Shown here: piece after piece, positions 35,745 through 41,130 of the stretch
How the letters are laid out: the number at the start of each line of letters is the position of its first letter
Position numbering within the stretch: the first letter of the stretch is position 1
Source of the DNA: Escherichia coli
GTDB lineage: Bacteria > Pseudomonadota > Gammaproteobacteria > Enterobacterales > Enterobacteriaceae
Assembly: GCF_046105845.1 (NCBI RefSeq)
Contig: NZ_CP151004.1
Direction: 5' to 3' (one strand)
DNA length: 64,000 nt
Translations under genes and position numbers: made by a program
The notes under the pieces: model-generated
The model's database searches: none
What the model was told of the DNA's origin: nothing
Seen by the model: only the letters and a program-made list of their open reading frames with translations

Positions 35745-36680
35745 ATGTCGCAAAATCAAGAAATTAGTAAGAAAGAACAATACAACCTGAACAAATTACA
35801 AAAACGTCTGCGTCGTAACGTGGGCGAAGCCATTGCTGACTTCAATATGATTGAAGAAGGCGATCGCATCATGGTTTGCCTCTCCGGGGGTAAAGACAGC
35901 TATACCATGCTGGAAATTCTGCGCAATTTGCAGCAAAGCGCGCCAATCAATTTTTCGCTGGTGGCTGTTAACCTCGATCAAAAGCAACCGGGCTTCCCGG
36001 AACACGTTCTGCCCGAGTATCTTGAAAAGCTGGGCGTTGAGTACAAGATTGTTGAAGAGAACACTTACGGTATCGTGAAAGAGAAGATTCCGGAGGGCAA
36101 AACCACTTGCTCACTGTGTTCTCGTCTTCGTCGCGGAATTCTTTACCGTACCGCAACGGAACTGGGAGCGACGAAGATCGCGCTGGGTCACCATCGTGAC
36201 GATATCCTGCAAACGTTGTTCTTAAATATGTTCTACGGTGGCAAGATGAAAGGTATGCCTCCGAAATTGATGAGCGATGATGGCAAACATATCGTGATTC
36301 GTCCGCTGGCCTACTGCCGCGAGAAAGATATTCAGCGCTTTGCCGATGCAAAAGCGTTCCCGATTATTCCGTGCAACCTGTGCGGTTCACAGCCTAACCT
36401 GCAACGTCAGGTGATTGCTGACATGTTGCGTGACTGGGATAAACGTTATCCGGGGCGTATCGAGACGATGTTCAGCGCGATGCAGAATGTGGTGCCGTCG
36501 CATCTGTGCGATACCAACCTGTTCGATTTCAAAGGCATTACCCACGGTTCTGAAGTGGTTAACGGGGGTGATCTGGCGTTTGATCGCGAAGAGATCCCTC
36601 TACAACCGGCGGGTTGGCAGCCTGAAGAAGATGAAAATCAGTTGGATGAGTTACGACTGAATGTGGTTGAAGTGAAATAA
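35745..36680 (+). CDS. ttcA: tRNA 2-thiocytidine(32) synthetase TtcA, full length
   Basis: 311-aa ORF with PP-loop SGGKDS and CxxC motifs (CSLC, CNLCGSQ). Confidence 0.95.
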
Positions 36681-36682
36681 CC

Positions 36683-36771
36683 CGGATAGCGCCCGATGCG
36701 CAAGCGTATCGGGCTACTCTTATGGAGGCCGGATAAGACGCGGCCAGCGTCGCATCCGGCAATCCCGAAGA
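36683..36771. repeat. REP/BIME element (pair of REP palindromes) between ttcA and dbpA
   Basis: gccggataagacgcggccagcgtcgcatccggcaat and flanking cccggatagcgcccgatgcgcaagcgtatcgggc are classic enterobacterial REP sequences. Confidence 0.7.
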
Positions 36772-36808
36772 AGATGTTGACTCTTGCACCCTGCGATTCA
36801 ACATTTCA

Positions 36809-38182
36809 TTATTTTAATAACCGCACCCGGCACGTTTTTCCTTTAATCTTCCCGCCCTGTAACTGTTTCCATGCTTTATGAGCAACAGCCTGACGCACCG
36901 CGACATAGACATGCGCCGGATGCACGGCGATTTTGCCAATATCTGCGCCATCAAGCCCGATATCTCCTGTCAGCGCACCTAATACATCACCCGGGCGCAT
37001 TTTGGCTTTTTTCCCGCCATCGATACATAACGTTGCCATTTCGGCTTCCAGCGGCACAATGGAACTATTAACTGGCGGCGTTTGCCAGTTAAGTTTTATC
37101 TGCAACATGTCAGAAATGATATTGGCCCGCTGTGCTTCTTCCGGGGCACAGAAACTGATCGCCAGACCGCTATTTCCTGCACGCGCTGTACGACCGATGC
37201 GATGTACATGAACTTCAGGATCCCACGCCAGCTCAAAGTTCACCACCAGCTCAAGCGATTTAATATCCAGACCTCGCGCAGCAACATCAGTCGCAACCAG
37301 TACACGGGCGCTACCGCTAGCAAAACGTACCAGGGTCTGATCGCGATCACGTTGCTCCAGATCGCCGTGTAACGACAATGCACTTTGCCCTACTTCATTC
37401 AGCGCGTCGCAGACAGCCTGGCAATCTTTTTTGGTATTGCAAAACACCACACAAGAGGATGGCTGATGCAAGCTTAATAACCGTTGCAACAGAGGAATTT
37501 TGCCTTTACTGGATGTCTCATAAAATTGTTGTTCAATGGGTGGCAGAGCATCTGTTGAGTCAATTTCAATCGCTAAAGGATCGCGTTGCACTCGTCCGCT
37601 GATTGCGGCGATGGCTTCCGGCCAGGTTGCCGAAAACAGAAGCGTCTGGCGAGATGCTGGCGCAAAACGGATGACATCATCAATGGCGTCGCTAAATCCC
37701 ATATCCAGCATGCGGTCGGCCTCATCCATCACCAGCGTATTCAACGCATCCAGTGATACCGTGCCTTTTTGCAGATGATCCAACAAACGGCCCGGCGTTG
37801 CCACGATAATATGCGGCGCATGTTGCAACGAATCACGCTGCATACCGAACGGTTGACCACCGCACAACGTCAAAATTTTGGTATTTGGCAGAAAACGCGC
37901 CAGCCGACGCAATTCACCTGCCACCTGATCCGCCAGTTCACGCGTAGGACACAGCACTAAAGCCTGGGTTTGAAATAGCGACGCATCAATTTGCTGTAAC
38001 AAGCCGAGGCCAAAAGCCGCCGTTTTGCCGCTGCCGGTTTTCGCCTGCACGCGAACATCTTTTCCGGCAAGGATCGCCGGAAGCGCGGCGGCCTGCACCG
38101 GCGTCATGGTTAAATAACCCAACTCATTAAGGTTCGTGAGTTGGGCGGGAGGCAAAACATTCAGGGTAGAAAAAGCGGTCAC
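36809..38182 (-). CDS. dbpA: ATP-dependent 23S rRNA-specific DEAD-box RNA helicase DbpA
   Basis: 457-aa ORF with Walker A (AKTGSGKT) and DEAD motif (VMDEADRM); GTG start. Confidence 0.95.
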   Translation of the reverse strand: MTAFSTLNVLPPAQLTNLNELGYLTMTPVQAAALPAILAGKDVRVQAKTGSGKTAAFGLGLLQQIDASLFQTQALVLCPTRELADQVAGELRRLARFLPNTKILTLCGGQPFGMQRDSLQHAPHIIVATPGRLLDHLQKGTVSLDALNTLVMDEADRMLDMGFSDAIDDVIRFAPASRQTLLFSATWPEAIAAISGRVQRDPLAIEIDSTDALPPIEQQFYETSSKGKIPLLQRLLSLHQPSSCVVFCNTKKDCQAVCDALNEVGQSALSLHGDLEQRDRDQTLVRFASGSARVLVATDVAARGLDIKSLELVVNFELAWDPEVHVHRIGRTARAGNSGLAISFCAPEEAQRANIISDMLQIKLNWQTPPVNSSIVPLEAEMATLCIDGGKKAKMRPGDVLGALTGDIGLDGADIGKIAVHPAHVYVAVRQAVAHKAWKQLQGGKIKGKTCRVRLLK

Positions 38183-38211
38183 AATCTATTCTCGTGGTCA
38201 TCGACGCAAAG

Positions 38212-38385
38212 TCAGCAGGCGCGTATCCTCGCAGATCTACGCTCACGATGCGACAATTTAATCGGTTCTTCGTCGGGTGGTGGGTCAGGCATGGGTTGCG
38301 GGCGAGGGATTGGATCGGGCACAGGAACAGGATCGCCAGGAATCGGTTCAGGGACAGGAATTTGCAAATAAATAAGTGTCGTCAT
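38212..38385 (-). CDS. Candidate 57-codon proline-rich small ORF immediately upstream of dbpA (hypothetical)
   Basis: ATG at 38385 preceded by GGAGGG 5 nt upstream; product MTTLIYLQIPVPEPIPGDPVPVPDPIPRPQPMPDPPPDEEPIKLSHRERRSARIRAC; not in ORF track (<60 aa); the plus strand of the same DNA gives Gly-rich ORFs, so coding status is unproven. Confidence 0.4.
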   Translation of the reverse strand: MTTLIYLQIPVPEPIPGDPVPVPDPIPRPQPMPDPPPDEEPIKLSHRERRSARIRAC

Positions 38386-38442
38386 ATTTCCCTCCGGTCA
38401 TTGGGTGGACACTTAAAGGGTAGACGCTGATAAATAACAGGC

Positions 38443-38564
38443 AAAAAAAAGCCGACTCATCAAAGTCGGCGTCGTACGAATCAATTGTGCTATGCAGTAA
38501 TTCAAAAAAGGAAGTAAGACAATATGGAGCGCAACGCCCATCGCTTGACGTTGCATTCACCTGC
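38443..38564 (-). ncRNA. fnrS: FnrS small RNA (FNR-activated, Hfq-dependent)
   Basis: Reverse complement begins GCAGGTGAATGCAACGTCAAGCGATGGGCGTTGCGCTCCATATTGTCTTACTTCC and ends in GC hairpin + T8, matching remembered FnrS; between zntB and dbpA. Confidence 0.9.
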
Positions 38565-38599
38565 AAGAGAGATATTGCCCTGAATGGGTAGAGAGTTTA

Positions 38600-38613
38600 T
38601 TGACTTCGCTCAA
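38600..38613 (-). promoter_or_regulatory. FNR binding site (TTGAG-CGAA-GTCAA on minus strand) centred about -42 of fnrS
   Basis: Near-consensus FNR box TTGAT-N4-ATCAA at class II activator position relative to inferred FnrS 5' end. Confidence 0.65.
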
Positions 38614-38659
38614 ACTTTGCGGCGTTTTTGTATACAGAAAGCCGGGAAAATTTCTTTTG

Positions 38660-39664
<1,005 letters not shown>

Positions 39665-39897
39665 TTATTTTGTAGTCTAGCCTTCTGGCCCTGTTACGCA
39701 ACATCTCATCACCCCATTACCCTGAAATGATTAATAAAATTCTGTCTAAATTGAATACAAAAAGCAAAATGCTTTTCCGTATACAAACCGTGTGAAGTGT
39801 TAAATAGCGTCTATCATTATCAGAATTATCTGATCATATGACGTGGCTTTTTTGCGATCGGATAGCAACAAAAATTGATAAAAATAACGGGATCTCA

Positions 39898-41130
39898 ATG
39901 ATTACGCACAACTTCAATACCCTGGACTTACTCACCAGTCCTGTCTGGATCGTTTCGCCCTTTGAGGAACAGTTAATTTATGCCAACAGCGCGGCGCGAC
40001 TGTTGATGCAAGACCTCACGTTTAGTCAGCTACGAACCGGTCCCTATTCCGTCTCCTCACAAAAAGAACTGCCGAAATACCTCTCCGATCTGCAAAACCA
40101 ACACGATATTATCGAAATCCTCACCGTTCAGCGCAATGAAGAGGAAACAGCATTGAGCTGTCGGCTTGTTTTGCGAAAGCTGACAGAAGCAGAACCGGTG
40201 ATTATTTTCGAAGGTATCGAAGCACCGGCAACGCTGGGTTTAAAAGCCAGTCGCTCGGCAAATTATCAGCGCAAAAAACAAGGTTTTTATGCGCGCTTTT
40301 TTCTGACTAACTCTGCACCAATGTTGTTGATTGACCCCTCACGAGATGGCCAAATCGTCGATGCTAACCTCGCCGCGCTCAATTTCTATGGCTATAACCA
40401 TGAAACGATGTGCCAGAAACATACCTGGGAAATTAATATGCTCGGGCGTCGCGTCATGCCTATCATGCATGAAATTTCGCATTTACCCGGTGGTCATAAA
40501 CCTTTGAATTTTGTTCATAAACTGGCGGATGGTTCGACTCGTCATGTGCAGACCTATGCTGGGCCGATTGAAATTTATGGCGACAAGCTCATGTTATGTA
40601 TTGTGCATGATATTACTGAGCAAAAACGGCTGGAGGAGCAGCTGGAACATGCTGCCCACCATGACGCGATGACCGGATTACTGAATCGGCGACAGTTTTA
40701 TCACATTACCGAGCCAGGCCAAATGCAGCACCTCGCCATCGCCCAGGATTACAGCTTGTTGCTCATCGACACCGATCGTTTTAAACACATTAACGATCTC
40801 TATGGGCATTCTAAAGGTGATGAGGTGTTATGCGCCCTCGCCCGCACTCTCGAAAGTTGCGCTCGCAAAGGCGATTTGGTATTTCGTTGGGGAGGCGAAG
40901 AGTTTGTCTTATTGCTACCAAGAACCCCACTGGATACCGCGCTTTCGCTGGCTGAAACTATCCGCGTAAGCGTGGCAAAAGTGAGTATTTCGGGCTTACC
41001 ACGCTTTACCGTCAGCATTGGTGTGGCGCATCACGAAGGAAATGAAAGCATCGATGAACTGTTTAAACGCGTTGATGATGCTTTGTATCGGGCGAAAAAT
41101 GATGGACGCAACCGCGTGCTGGCGGCATAA
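39898..41130 (+). CDS. dgcM: Diguanylate cyclase DgcM (YdaM), PAS-PAS-GGDEF
   Basis: Start trimmed to MITHNFNTLDL (410 aa); GGEEF active site (RWGGEEFVLLL). Confidence 0.9.
   Translation: MITHNFNTLDLLTSPVWIVSPFEEQLIYANSAARLLMQDLTFSQLRTGPYSVSSQKELPKYLSDLQNQHDIIEILTVQRNEEETALSCRLVLRKLTEAEPVIIFEGIEAPATLGLKASRSANYQRKKQGFYARFFLTNSAPMLLIDPSRDGQIVDANLAALNFYGYNHETMCQKHTWEINMLGRRVMPIMHEISHLPGGHKPLNFVHKLADGSTRHVQTYAGPIEIYGDKLMLCIVHDITEQKRLEEQLEHAAHHDAMTGLLNRRQFYHITEPGQMQHLAIAQDYSLLLIDTDRFKHINDLYGHSKGDEVLCALARTLESCARKGDLVFRWGGEEFVLLLPRTPLDTALSLAETIRVSVAKVSISGLPRFTVSIGVAHHEGNESIDELFKRVDDALYRAKNDGRNRVLAA

Follow-up and report, generated by a model that had tools for sequence, protein, structure and literature searches.

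The 64,000-nucleotide stretch of Escherichia (E.) coli DNA considered here (contig NZ_CP151004.1 of assembly GCF_046105845.1; referred to below as the window) contains, on its minus strand and between the small RNA (sRNA) gene fnrS and the RNA helicase gene dbpA, an open reading frame (ORF) of 57 codons that encodes a proline-rich peptide. An earlier note on this DNA described the ORF as unlisted and suggested that it is either a leader of dbpA or an independent small proline-rich protein. The ORF is a genuine, already catalogued small-protein gene, ynaL, the same gene as in E. coli K-12, and it is not unlisted, i.e., RefSeq already annotates it. The discussion below concerns three properties of this gene: a central region of alternating X-Pro codons that is conserved at the amino-acid level, a gene neighborhood that does not always include dbpA, and two blocks at the 3′ end that are conserved at the nucleotide level. 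The gene and its parts are the following:

38212..38385, minus strand: ynaL coding sequence, 57 codons and a TGA stop codon (ORF listing, Pfam PF23677, RefSeq, K-12 b4743)
38263..38358, minus strand: X-Pro core, codons 10-41, with amino acids kept and third positions variable
38275..38283, minus strand: CCA CCA CCC, i.e., Pro35-Pro37 in DPPPD, the sole consecutive-proline run and predicted EF-P-dependent site
38248..38265, minus strand: block 1, CCGATTAAATTGTCGCAT, codons 41-46, nucleotide-invariant except for one T/A position
38218..38238, minus strand: block 2, AGATCTGCGAGGATACGCGCC, codons 50-56, nucleotide-invariant from Escherichia to Klebsiella, Raoultella and Kosakonia

The reading frame extends from an ATG at 38385-38383 to a TGA at 38214-38212 on the minus strand, as found both by reading of the sequence and in the ORF listing, and its product is MTTLIYLQIPVPEPIPGDPVPVPDPIPRPQPMPDPPPDEEPIKLSHRERRSARIRAC, in which 16 of the 57 residues are prolines. 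The translation given in the earlier note agrees letter for letter, and the geometry described there, i.e., the ATG, the GGAGGG in front of it, the 57 codons and the 29 nucleotides (nt) to the dbpA GTG, is matched throughout in the sequence. The product aligns to Pfam family PF23677 (“Protein YnaL-like”) with E = 2.2e-40, residues 1-57 being placed on model positions 1-57 of 57, and the RefSeq name of the gene is ynaL, “proline-rich small protein YnaL”. In K-12 the gene (b4743, YP_009518775.1) is located at 1409308-1409481, between fnrS and dbpA, and the placement in the window, downstream of zntB and between these two genes, is the same. The two alleles differ at 4 nt, where three differences are synonymous and the remaining one changes the stop codon from TAA to TGA; the proteins are identical. 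Most E. coli ynaL genes, that of K-12 included, end with TAA. Among 5426 complete E. coli genomes, megablast found the ynaL region, with its annotation, in 5392, and only 6 of these 5392 records display ≥99% identity to the TGA allele of the window. The window is accordingly derived from a lineage that is uncommon within E. coli, or from a near relative of the species.

The protein is known to be synthesized in E. coli K-12: VanOrsdel et al. 2018 (PMC6001520) gave the identical 57-amino-acid sequence and detected the protein by immunoblotting after addition of a chromosomal sequential peptide affinity (SPA) tag. A tetracycline ribosome-profiling screen had also scored YnaL as positive, and the only further comment on it in that study is that the gene adjoins dbpA, with which it possibly shares an operon (PMC6001520). 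A search of the accessible literature for ynaL in combination with dbpA, ribosome profiling and EF-P found the E. coli protein only in this discovery paper. Synthesis in the strain from which the window is derived is presumed from the identity of the protein and from a GGAGGG 4 nt before the ATG, which other E. coli loci share. Because ynaL has been part of the E. coli annotation since 2018, the identification of the ORF has no value as a gene discovery.

A protein search yielded 162 homologs, all with PF23677, from Escherichia, Salmonella, Citrobacter, Enterobacter, Klebsiella, Raoultella, Kosakonia, Leclercia, Lelliottia and other genera. Only 36 matches were returned when 1.84 billion representatives were searched with a profile; the YnaL family is small, with divergent members in Erwinia, Mixta, Phytobacter, Scandinavium and Kosakonia. 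The alignment has a variable N-terminal stretch of ∼15 residues and a nearly invariant segment, DPVPxPDPIPRPQPMPDPPPDEEPIKLSH..RSARIRAC. Among 30 orthologous DNA sequences the entropy at the three codon positions is 0.20, 0.18 and 0.80, respectively, and the ratio of nonsynonymous to synonymous divergence (dN/dS) relative to the window is 0.01-0.19 at dS values of 0.5-1.3. The constraint covers ∼23 consecutive residues and extends beyond the Pro-Pro codons. The ATG and a GGAGG motif (or a close variant of it) are retained across genera at nearly all orthologous loci, and an even sample of 60 E. coli matches contains 59 that are ungapped and of full length. In other words, the frame is kept across genera and substitutions are synonymous-biased, which are the two features for which the earlier note had suggested comparing related loci. 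As judged from this pattern, strong purifying selection acts on the acidic X-Pro core (DPVPxPDPIPRPQPMPDPPP).

The gene order zntB-fnrS-ynaL is constant across the lineages examined, and fnrS is the upstream neighbor of ynaL in all related loci for which upstream sequence was examined. The position of dbpA differs in the following lineages:

Phytobacter (locus L038), Enterobacter sp. BIGb0383 (L043/L044) and Mixta (L049): zntB-fnrS-ynaL followed by a hairpin and convergent ttcA, with dbpA not adjacent
Erwinia (L039-L041): zntB-fnrS-ynaL-ttcA-dbpA, with dbpA having its own upstream region

A clear intrinsic terminator, composed of a hairpin and a T-run, is found behind ynaL in one of the Erwinia loci (L041), and Erwinia dbpA starts at the same weak GAGAG-GTG site without ynaL upstream. 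At loci without adjacent dbpA, selection on the X-Pro core persists, with a ratio of nonsynonymous to synonymous differences per site (pN/pS) of 0.02-0.21 at pS values of 0.4-0.9. In Phytobacter, Erwinia and Mixta (L038, L039-L042 and L049) a second PPP is found two residues before the stop codon, the proteins ending in DPPPHR, DPPPYR or DPPPHM, and the L043/L044 proteins instead end in KLSRV. Because ynaL is intact, selected and trailed by a terminator-like hairpin at loci where dbpA is not adjacent, it is not merely a dbpA leader, and because it persists there, a leader role cannot be ancestral or general. Gene order and selection, taken together, indicate that ynaL is conserved as an independent gene, the linkage of which is to zntB and fnrS and not to dbpA. 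Of the possibilities raised in the earlier note, an independent small proline-rich protein is the best-supported one.

The 3′ end of ynaL displays another type of conservation. Synonymous variation is seen in one of 14 block codons as compared to 21 of 22 informative codons of the core (Fisher p = 8e-8). Block 1 reads CCG ATT AAA [T/A]TG TCG CAT and is unchanged also in Klebsiella, Raoultella and Kosakonia; block 2 reads AGA TCT GCG AGG ATA CGC GCC, in which AGA, AGG and ATA are rare codons. Both blocks are missing where dbpA is not directly downstream, i.e., in Erwinia, Phytobacter, Mixta and L043/L044. In K. cowanii (L046/L047) and at loci L045 and L048, an early nonsense codon in the variable linker results in a YnaL that ends in KMSR, KLSR or KLSHR, and these lineages nevertheless keep CAGATCTG[A/C]GAGGATACGCGCC, which corresponds to block 2, untranslated in the spacer upstream of dbpA. 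Because block 2 is kept in untranslated form, and because both blocks are absent where dbpA is not adjacent, they are assigned to the ynaL-dbpA junction and look like a cis element linked to dbpA. The last ∼17 codons of ynaL would accordingly overlap two blocks of a control region upstream of dbpA, and because of this overlap the basic tail of YnaL (RSARIRAC) would be at least partly an overprint. The comparison narrows the hypotheses in that selection on the peptide is seen in the X-Pro core, not in the tail, and in that a ∼20-nt invariant element travels with dbpA. This nucleotide-invariant, dbpA-linked element is the one new observation of the analysis, ynaL itself being already known.

The nature of the element was approached in several ways. 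A TAAATT/TAAAAT sequence is found inside block 1 (38260-38255), where the polymorphic base preserves the pattern TAnnnT, and it is possible that this sequence serves as an internal −10 element for dbpA. Conserved RNA structure that would link the blocks to the dbpA start was not found, neither from the minimum free energy (MFE) of the single sequence (z = 0.57 relative to shuffles) nor with RNAalifold, which gave no compensatory pairs. Inspection of the blocks by eye for sigma-54, CsrA-like GGA-hairpin, FNR/CRP and internal-start signals gave partial matches only. Mimicry of 23S rRNA, as a basis for autoregulation by DbpA, was also considered and rejected: when the ynaL 3′ end and dbpA leader were locally aligned to K-12 rrlH and to the 2454-2606 fragment, 497 of 500 and 168 of 500 shuffled sequences, respectively, reached the observed alignment score.

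The surrounding features on which a link to dbpA and the expression of ynaL would depend are the following:

36809..38182, minus strand: dbpA, ATP-dependent RNA helicase of 457 amino acids, with a GTG start at 38182 and a GAGA-type Shine-Dalgarno (SD) sequence only
38183..38211, minus strand: ynaL-dbpA spacer of 29 nt with a conserved ACCRCGAGA at 38198-38190
38390..38395, minus strand: SD sequence GGAGGG of ynaL, 4 nt before the ATG, or 5 nt when counted from the GGAGG core
38417..38444, minus strand: candidate sigma-70 promoter of ynaL, based on conservation
38470-38451, minus strand: stem of the fnrS intrinsic terminator (terminator scan)
38447..38564, minus strand: fnrS sRNA gene (Rfam RF01796, 134.8 bits)

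The earlier note placed the ORF between the fnrS terminator and dbpA, in agreement with these positions. Directly behind the T-tract of the terminator, a candidate promoter is composed of a −35 element TTGCCT (38444-38439), which overlaps the end of the terminator, a 16-nt spacer and a −10 element TACCCT (38422-38417). The pattern TTGCnn-N16/17-TAnnnT recurs in 33 of 37 loci, the Erwinia form being TTGCCA-17-TATGCT. The gene is probably transcribed from this weak sigma-70 promoter, TTGCCT-N16-TACCCT, which abuts the fnrS terminator. The Cappable-seq and SMRT-Cappable-seq supplementary tables that were searched have no entry for the ynaL locus. Rfam 15 families gave no match over 38180-38400, and at E ≤ 1 the region 36000-41000 contained only fnrS and two weak naRNA4 matches. 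The latter are found on both strands of the dbpA-ttcA spacer (36727-36807) at scores of 27.8-29.1 bits, i.e., below the gathering score of 59.5, and they probably reflect a palindromic element similar to repetitive extragenic palindromic (REP) sequences. Another tiny upstream ORF is found in the same row of genes, a 15-codon frame at ∼39657-39704 on the minus strand, which is separated by 13 nt from the zntB GTG downstream and corresponds to K-12 YnaN (b4773).

In the Enterobacteriaceae ynaL and dbpA are in close tandem. At the junction itself, the distance from the ynaL stop codon to the dbpA GTG is 14-30 nt in lineages with full-length ynaL. A weak 5-bp hairpin may form over the dbpA start between CACGA (38196-38192) and UUGUG (38184-38180); across loci the first strand reads CRCGA, and the changes are one-sided, without compensatory pairs. 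Because the stop codon lies this close to a GTG with a weak SD sequence, a secondary, lineage-specific translational coupling from ynaL to dbpA is possible in the Enterobacteriaceae. Ribosomes that finish ynaL would stop 14-30 nt before the weak GTG and would probably help initiation at dbpA by such coupling. The RNA of codons 9-42 contains 42% C and 18% G (C/G ratio 2.4), and translating ribosomes probably protect this C-rich segment from the termination factor Rho. Because PPP is found in 146 of 158 representatives of the family (PP in 152 of 158), dependence on EF-P is plausible, and synthesis of YnaL is probably EF-P dependent through the single DPPPD run. If coupling operates in this way, EF-P or the supply of proline would affect dbpA only secondarily. 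In the Klebsiella locus L032 (2650-4083) the gene caller extended dbpA to 477 amino acids, with a start inside ynaL, which reveals that automated annotation at the ynaL-dbpA junction is inconsistent.

The predicted structure of the peptide is that of an extended chain. The AlphaFold model has a predicted template modeling (pTM) score of 0.22, secondary structure only at residues 2-8, and values of the predicted local distance difference test (pLDDT) of ≥90 over residues 21-40 only. No relatives of YnaL were found in the PDB, and the NCBIfam matches are compositional only. Membership in the TonB family was considered and dismissed, as the score of NCBIfam NF008084 is 20.8 bits compared to a cut-off of 315, and Pfam TonB_N gives E = 0.75, i.e., the resemblance is one of composition. 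YnaL would be a free, non-globular, extended proline-rich peptide and not only a cis-acting leader, and it is probably a binding or spacer peptide of the polyproline-II type.

From the above discussion, an account emerges in which ynaL encodes a free, selected X-Pro peptide, is transcribed from a weak sigma-70 promoter, extends with its tail over blocks linked to dbpA and, in some lineages, is secondarily coupled to dbpA. As a whole this account is considered somewhat more likely than not, and a number of observations weigh against it. The binding role of a free peptide is suggested by selection and synteny only. The candidate promoter is weak, with 7 of 12 consensus matches, a sigma-70 consensus scan reported no promoter at this site (the motif is below threshold), and the promoter spacing is lost in three Citrobacter loci (L023-L025). 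The PPP is not universal, being replaced by PSP in E. albertii and the C. youngae group and by PPQ in C. amalonaticus. In the early-stop lineages the gap to dbpA is 57-62 nt, and because of these gaps and of the use of the Erwinia GTG site without ynaL upstream, coupling to dbpA is dispensable. In full-length lineages the tail never varies, which makes selection on the tail peptide inseparable from selection on the DNA or RNA. Finally, a few E. coli strains harbor frameshifted or deleted alleles. In E. coli N3, the strain closest to the window, a 1-nt frameshift just past the PPP codons (L001, 1816-1988) leads to loss of the Asp codon of DPPPD, and the allele is flagged as a pseudogene. E. coli E69 (L009, 2501-2638) has an in-frame deletion of 33 nt, which is the spacing of the imperfect direct repeats D1 at 38302-38327 and 38335-38360 of the window. 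Considering this frameshift and the match of the deletion to the repeat spacing, the proline-codon region seems prone to slippage or recombination.

These alleles are also the kind of observation that would be expected if the ORF were open by chance in a non-coding, repeat-like spacer, which the earlier note had named as a caveat and which is now given practically no probability. The opposite strand carries Gly-rich ORFs, and the proline-rich segment displays an excess of self-identity at lags of 6, 12 and 18 nt (z = 3.0, 2.8 and 4.9, respectively) as well as a few imperfect direct repeats with a spacing of 12-33 nt. Nevertheless, TRF found no tandem repeats at ynaL, i.e., of the “degenerate short-period repeat” described earlier, a weak periodicity stands while a tandem array does not, and both the lags and the direct repeats are explained by the alternating X-Pro codons, of which they are the shadow in the DNA. 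Because third positions are free while amino acids are kept, and because the identical K-12 protein has been detected, the non-coding reading is rejected: the low dN/dS is seen at near-saturated synonymous sites, the ORF, the start codon and the SD sequence are kept across genera of two families, and the immunoblot and the selection pattern had already refuted a chance frame. Another explanation places the invariance of the blocks at the level of codons, with the rare AGA, AGG and AUA acting as a programmed slow-down of translation. Three of the rarest E. coli codons are indeed found within five codons, all of them invariant; yet the same nucleotides are kept past nonsense codons, where they are not translated, in three lineages, and the blocks are missing from all ynaL genes without adjacent dbpA, which leaves this explanation very improbable. 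Much the same low probability applies to an arrest peptide of the SecM/TnaC type, in which the exit tunnel would be occupied by the C-terminal ∼40 residues, with an arrest at or near the stop codon that gates the dbpA start or access of Rho. The distribution of conserved residues is suggestive, since conservation in Escherichia, Salmonella, Citrobacter and Enterobacter sets in after a variable N-terminal stretch of ∼15 residues and covers the other ∼40 up to the stop codon, which is near the dbpA start. Among the lineages, however, the tails vary (RIRAC, RIRAI, RIRACRSSVL in Klebsiella, KLSR/KMSR/KLSHR and DPPPHR/DPPPHM), the invariance of the tail is one of nucleotides and persists without translation, and dbpA is not always downstream.

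The most substantial competitor of the free-peptide account is a dedicated cis-acting leader of dbpA, in which stalling at PPP is relieved by EF-P and acts through coupling or Rho-dependent polarity, the peptide having no function in trans. The short distance between the ynaL stop codon and a dbpA start with a GAGA-type SD sequence only, the presence of DPPPD in most family members, an RNA that is C-rich, G-poor and rut-like, and the weak hairpin over the dbpA start are all in line with this idea, as are the precedent of the proline-codon leaders mgtL and mgtP and the Rho polarity observed in a Δefp strain when polyproline stalls occur upstream of C-rich RNA (PMC5021804). A leader without trans function does not, on the other hand, account for intact, selected ynaL genes with a terminator-like hairpin behind them at loci that lack dbpA downstream, for constraint on ∼23 consecutive residues beyond the Pro-Pro codons, or for the PSP and PPQ variants that lack PPP. 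Moreover, alternative or covarying RNA structure was not found (z = 0.57), the early-stop lineages have shifted the stop codon to 57-62 nt from dbpA, and in Erwinia the same weak GTG site serves dbpA with no ynaL upstream. The dedicated leader is therefore judged unlikely, and of the leader or upstream ORF proposed in the earlier note, the general role does not stand (it is contradicted by persistence without dbpA, by the missing attenuator structure and by the PSP/PPQ variants), while lineage-specific coupling is left as a possibility because of the stop codon near the weak GTG. A broader proposal for the Enterobacteriaceae combines the two functions: the blocks would be a cis element of dbpA (an internal promoter, an operator in the 5′ untranslated region, or a protein or sRNA site), and translation of ynaL across it, limited by the EF-P-dependent DPPPD and by access of Rho to the C-rich RNA, would tie DbpA to elongation capacity, such that YnaL has a dual role as a trans peptide and a cis sensor. 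This proposal is speculative, and it is given a small though appreciable chance, slightly above that of the dedicated leader. If the element and ynaL translation do control dbpA, then EF-P and translation capacity would be linked to a helicase of 50S assembly, which would be a modest addition to what is known of the regulation of ribosome biogenesis.

Returning to the account of a free, selected peptide, the closest known parallels to the arrangement of ynaL and dbpA are mgtL and mgtP, the proline-codon leader ORFs of Salmonella mgtA and mgtCBR, respectively, which are controlled by EF-P (PMC3641672, PMC5299641, PMC6460261). These leaders and ynaL are short ORFs with consecutive Pro codons upstream of another gene, where EF-P and the supply of prolyl-tRNA would be expected to set the speed of translation; in ynaL the PPP is at codons 35-37 and the stop codon 29 nt before the dbpA GTG. 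In contrast to ynaL, for which no alternative stem-loops were found (MFE z = 0.57), mgtL and mgtP act via such structures. Their peptides matter only for the Pro codons, whereas in YnaL ∼23 residues are selected, and ynaL survives without the downstream gene, unlike a linked leader of the mgtL/mgtP type.

TnaC and SecM are regulatory arrest peptides, encoded by small upstream ORFs, in which a conserved peptide is found near the start of the next gene. In contrast to these systems, YnaL varies among lineages in its C-terminus and in the position of its stop codon, and the gene downstream is not always the same; in the family alignment and the tails, no arrest motif is kept at a set distance from the stop codon. 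A further parallel is provided by Elgamal and Ibba 2016 (PMC5021804), who found that polyproline stalls upstream of C-rich RNA lead to Rho-dependent polarity in a Δefp strain. The likeness of ynaL-dbpA is one of sequence, in that a PPP is encoded within C-rich, G-poor RNA and a second cistron follows; that study used synthetic reporters. None of the EF-P papers examined, PMC5021804 included, mentions dbpA. With respect to the peptide itself, a comparison can be made with the proline-rich spacer of TonB (Pfam PF16031; NCBIfam NF008084). Whereas YnaL is without the N-terminal anchor and without the C-terminal domain of TonB, it shares with this spacer the alternating X-Pro pattern and a chain that is predicted to be extended and non-globular.

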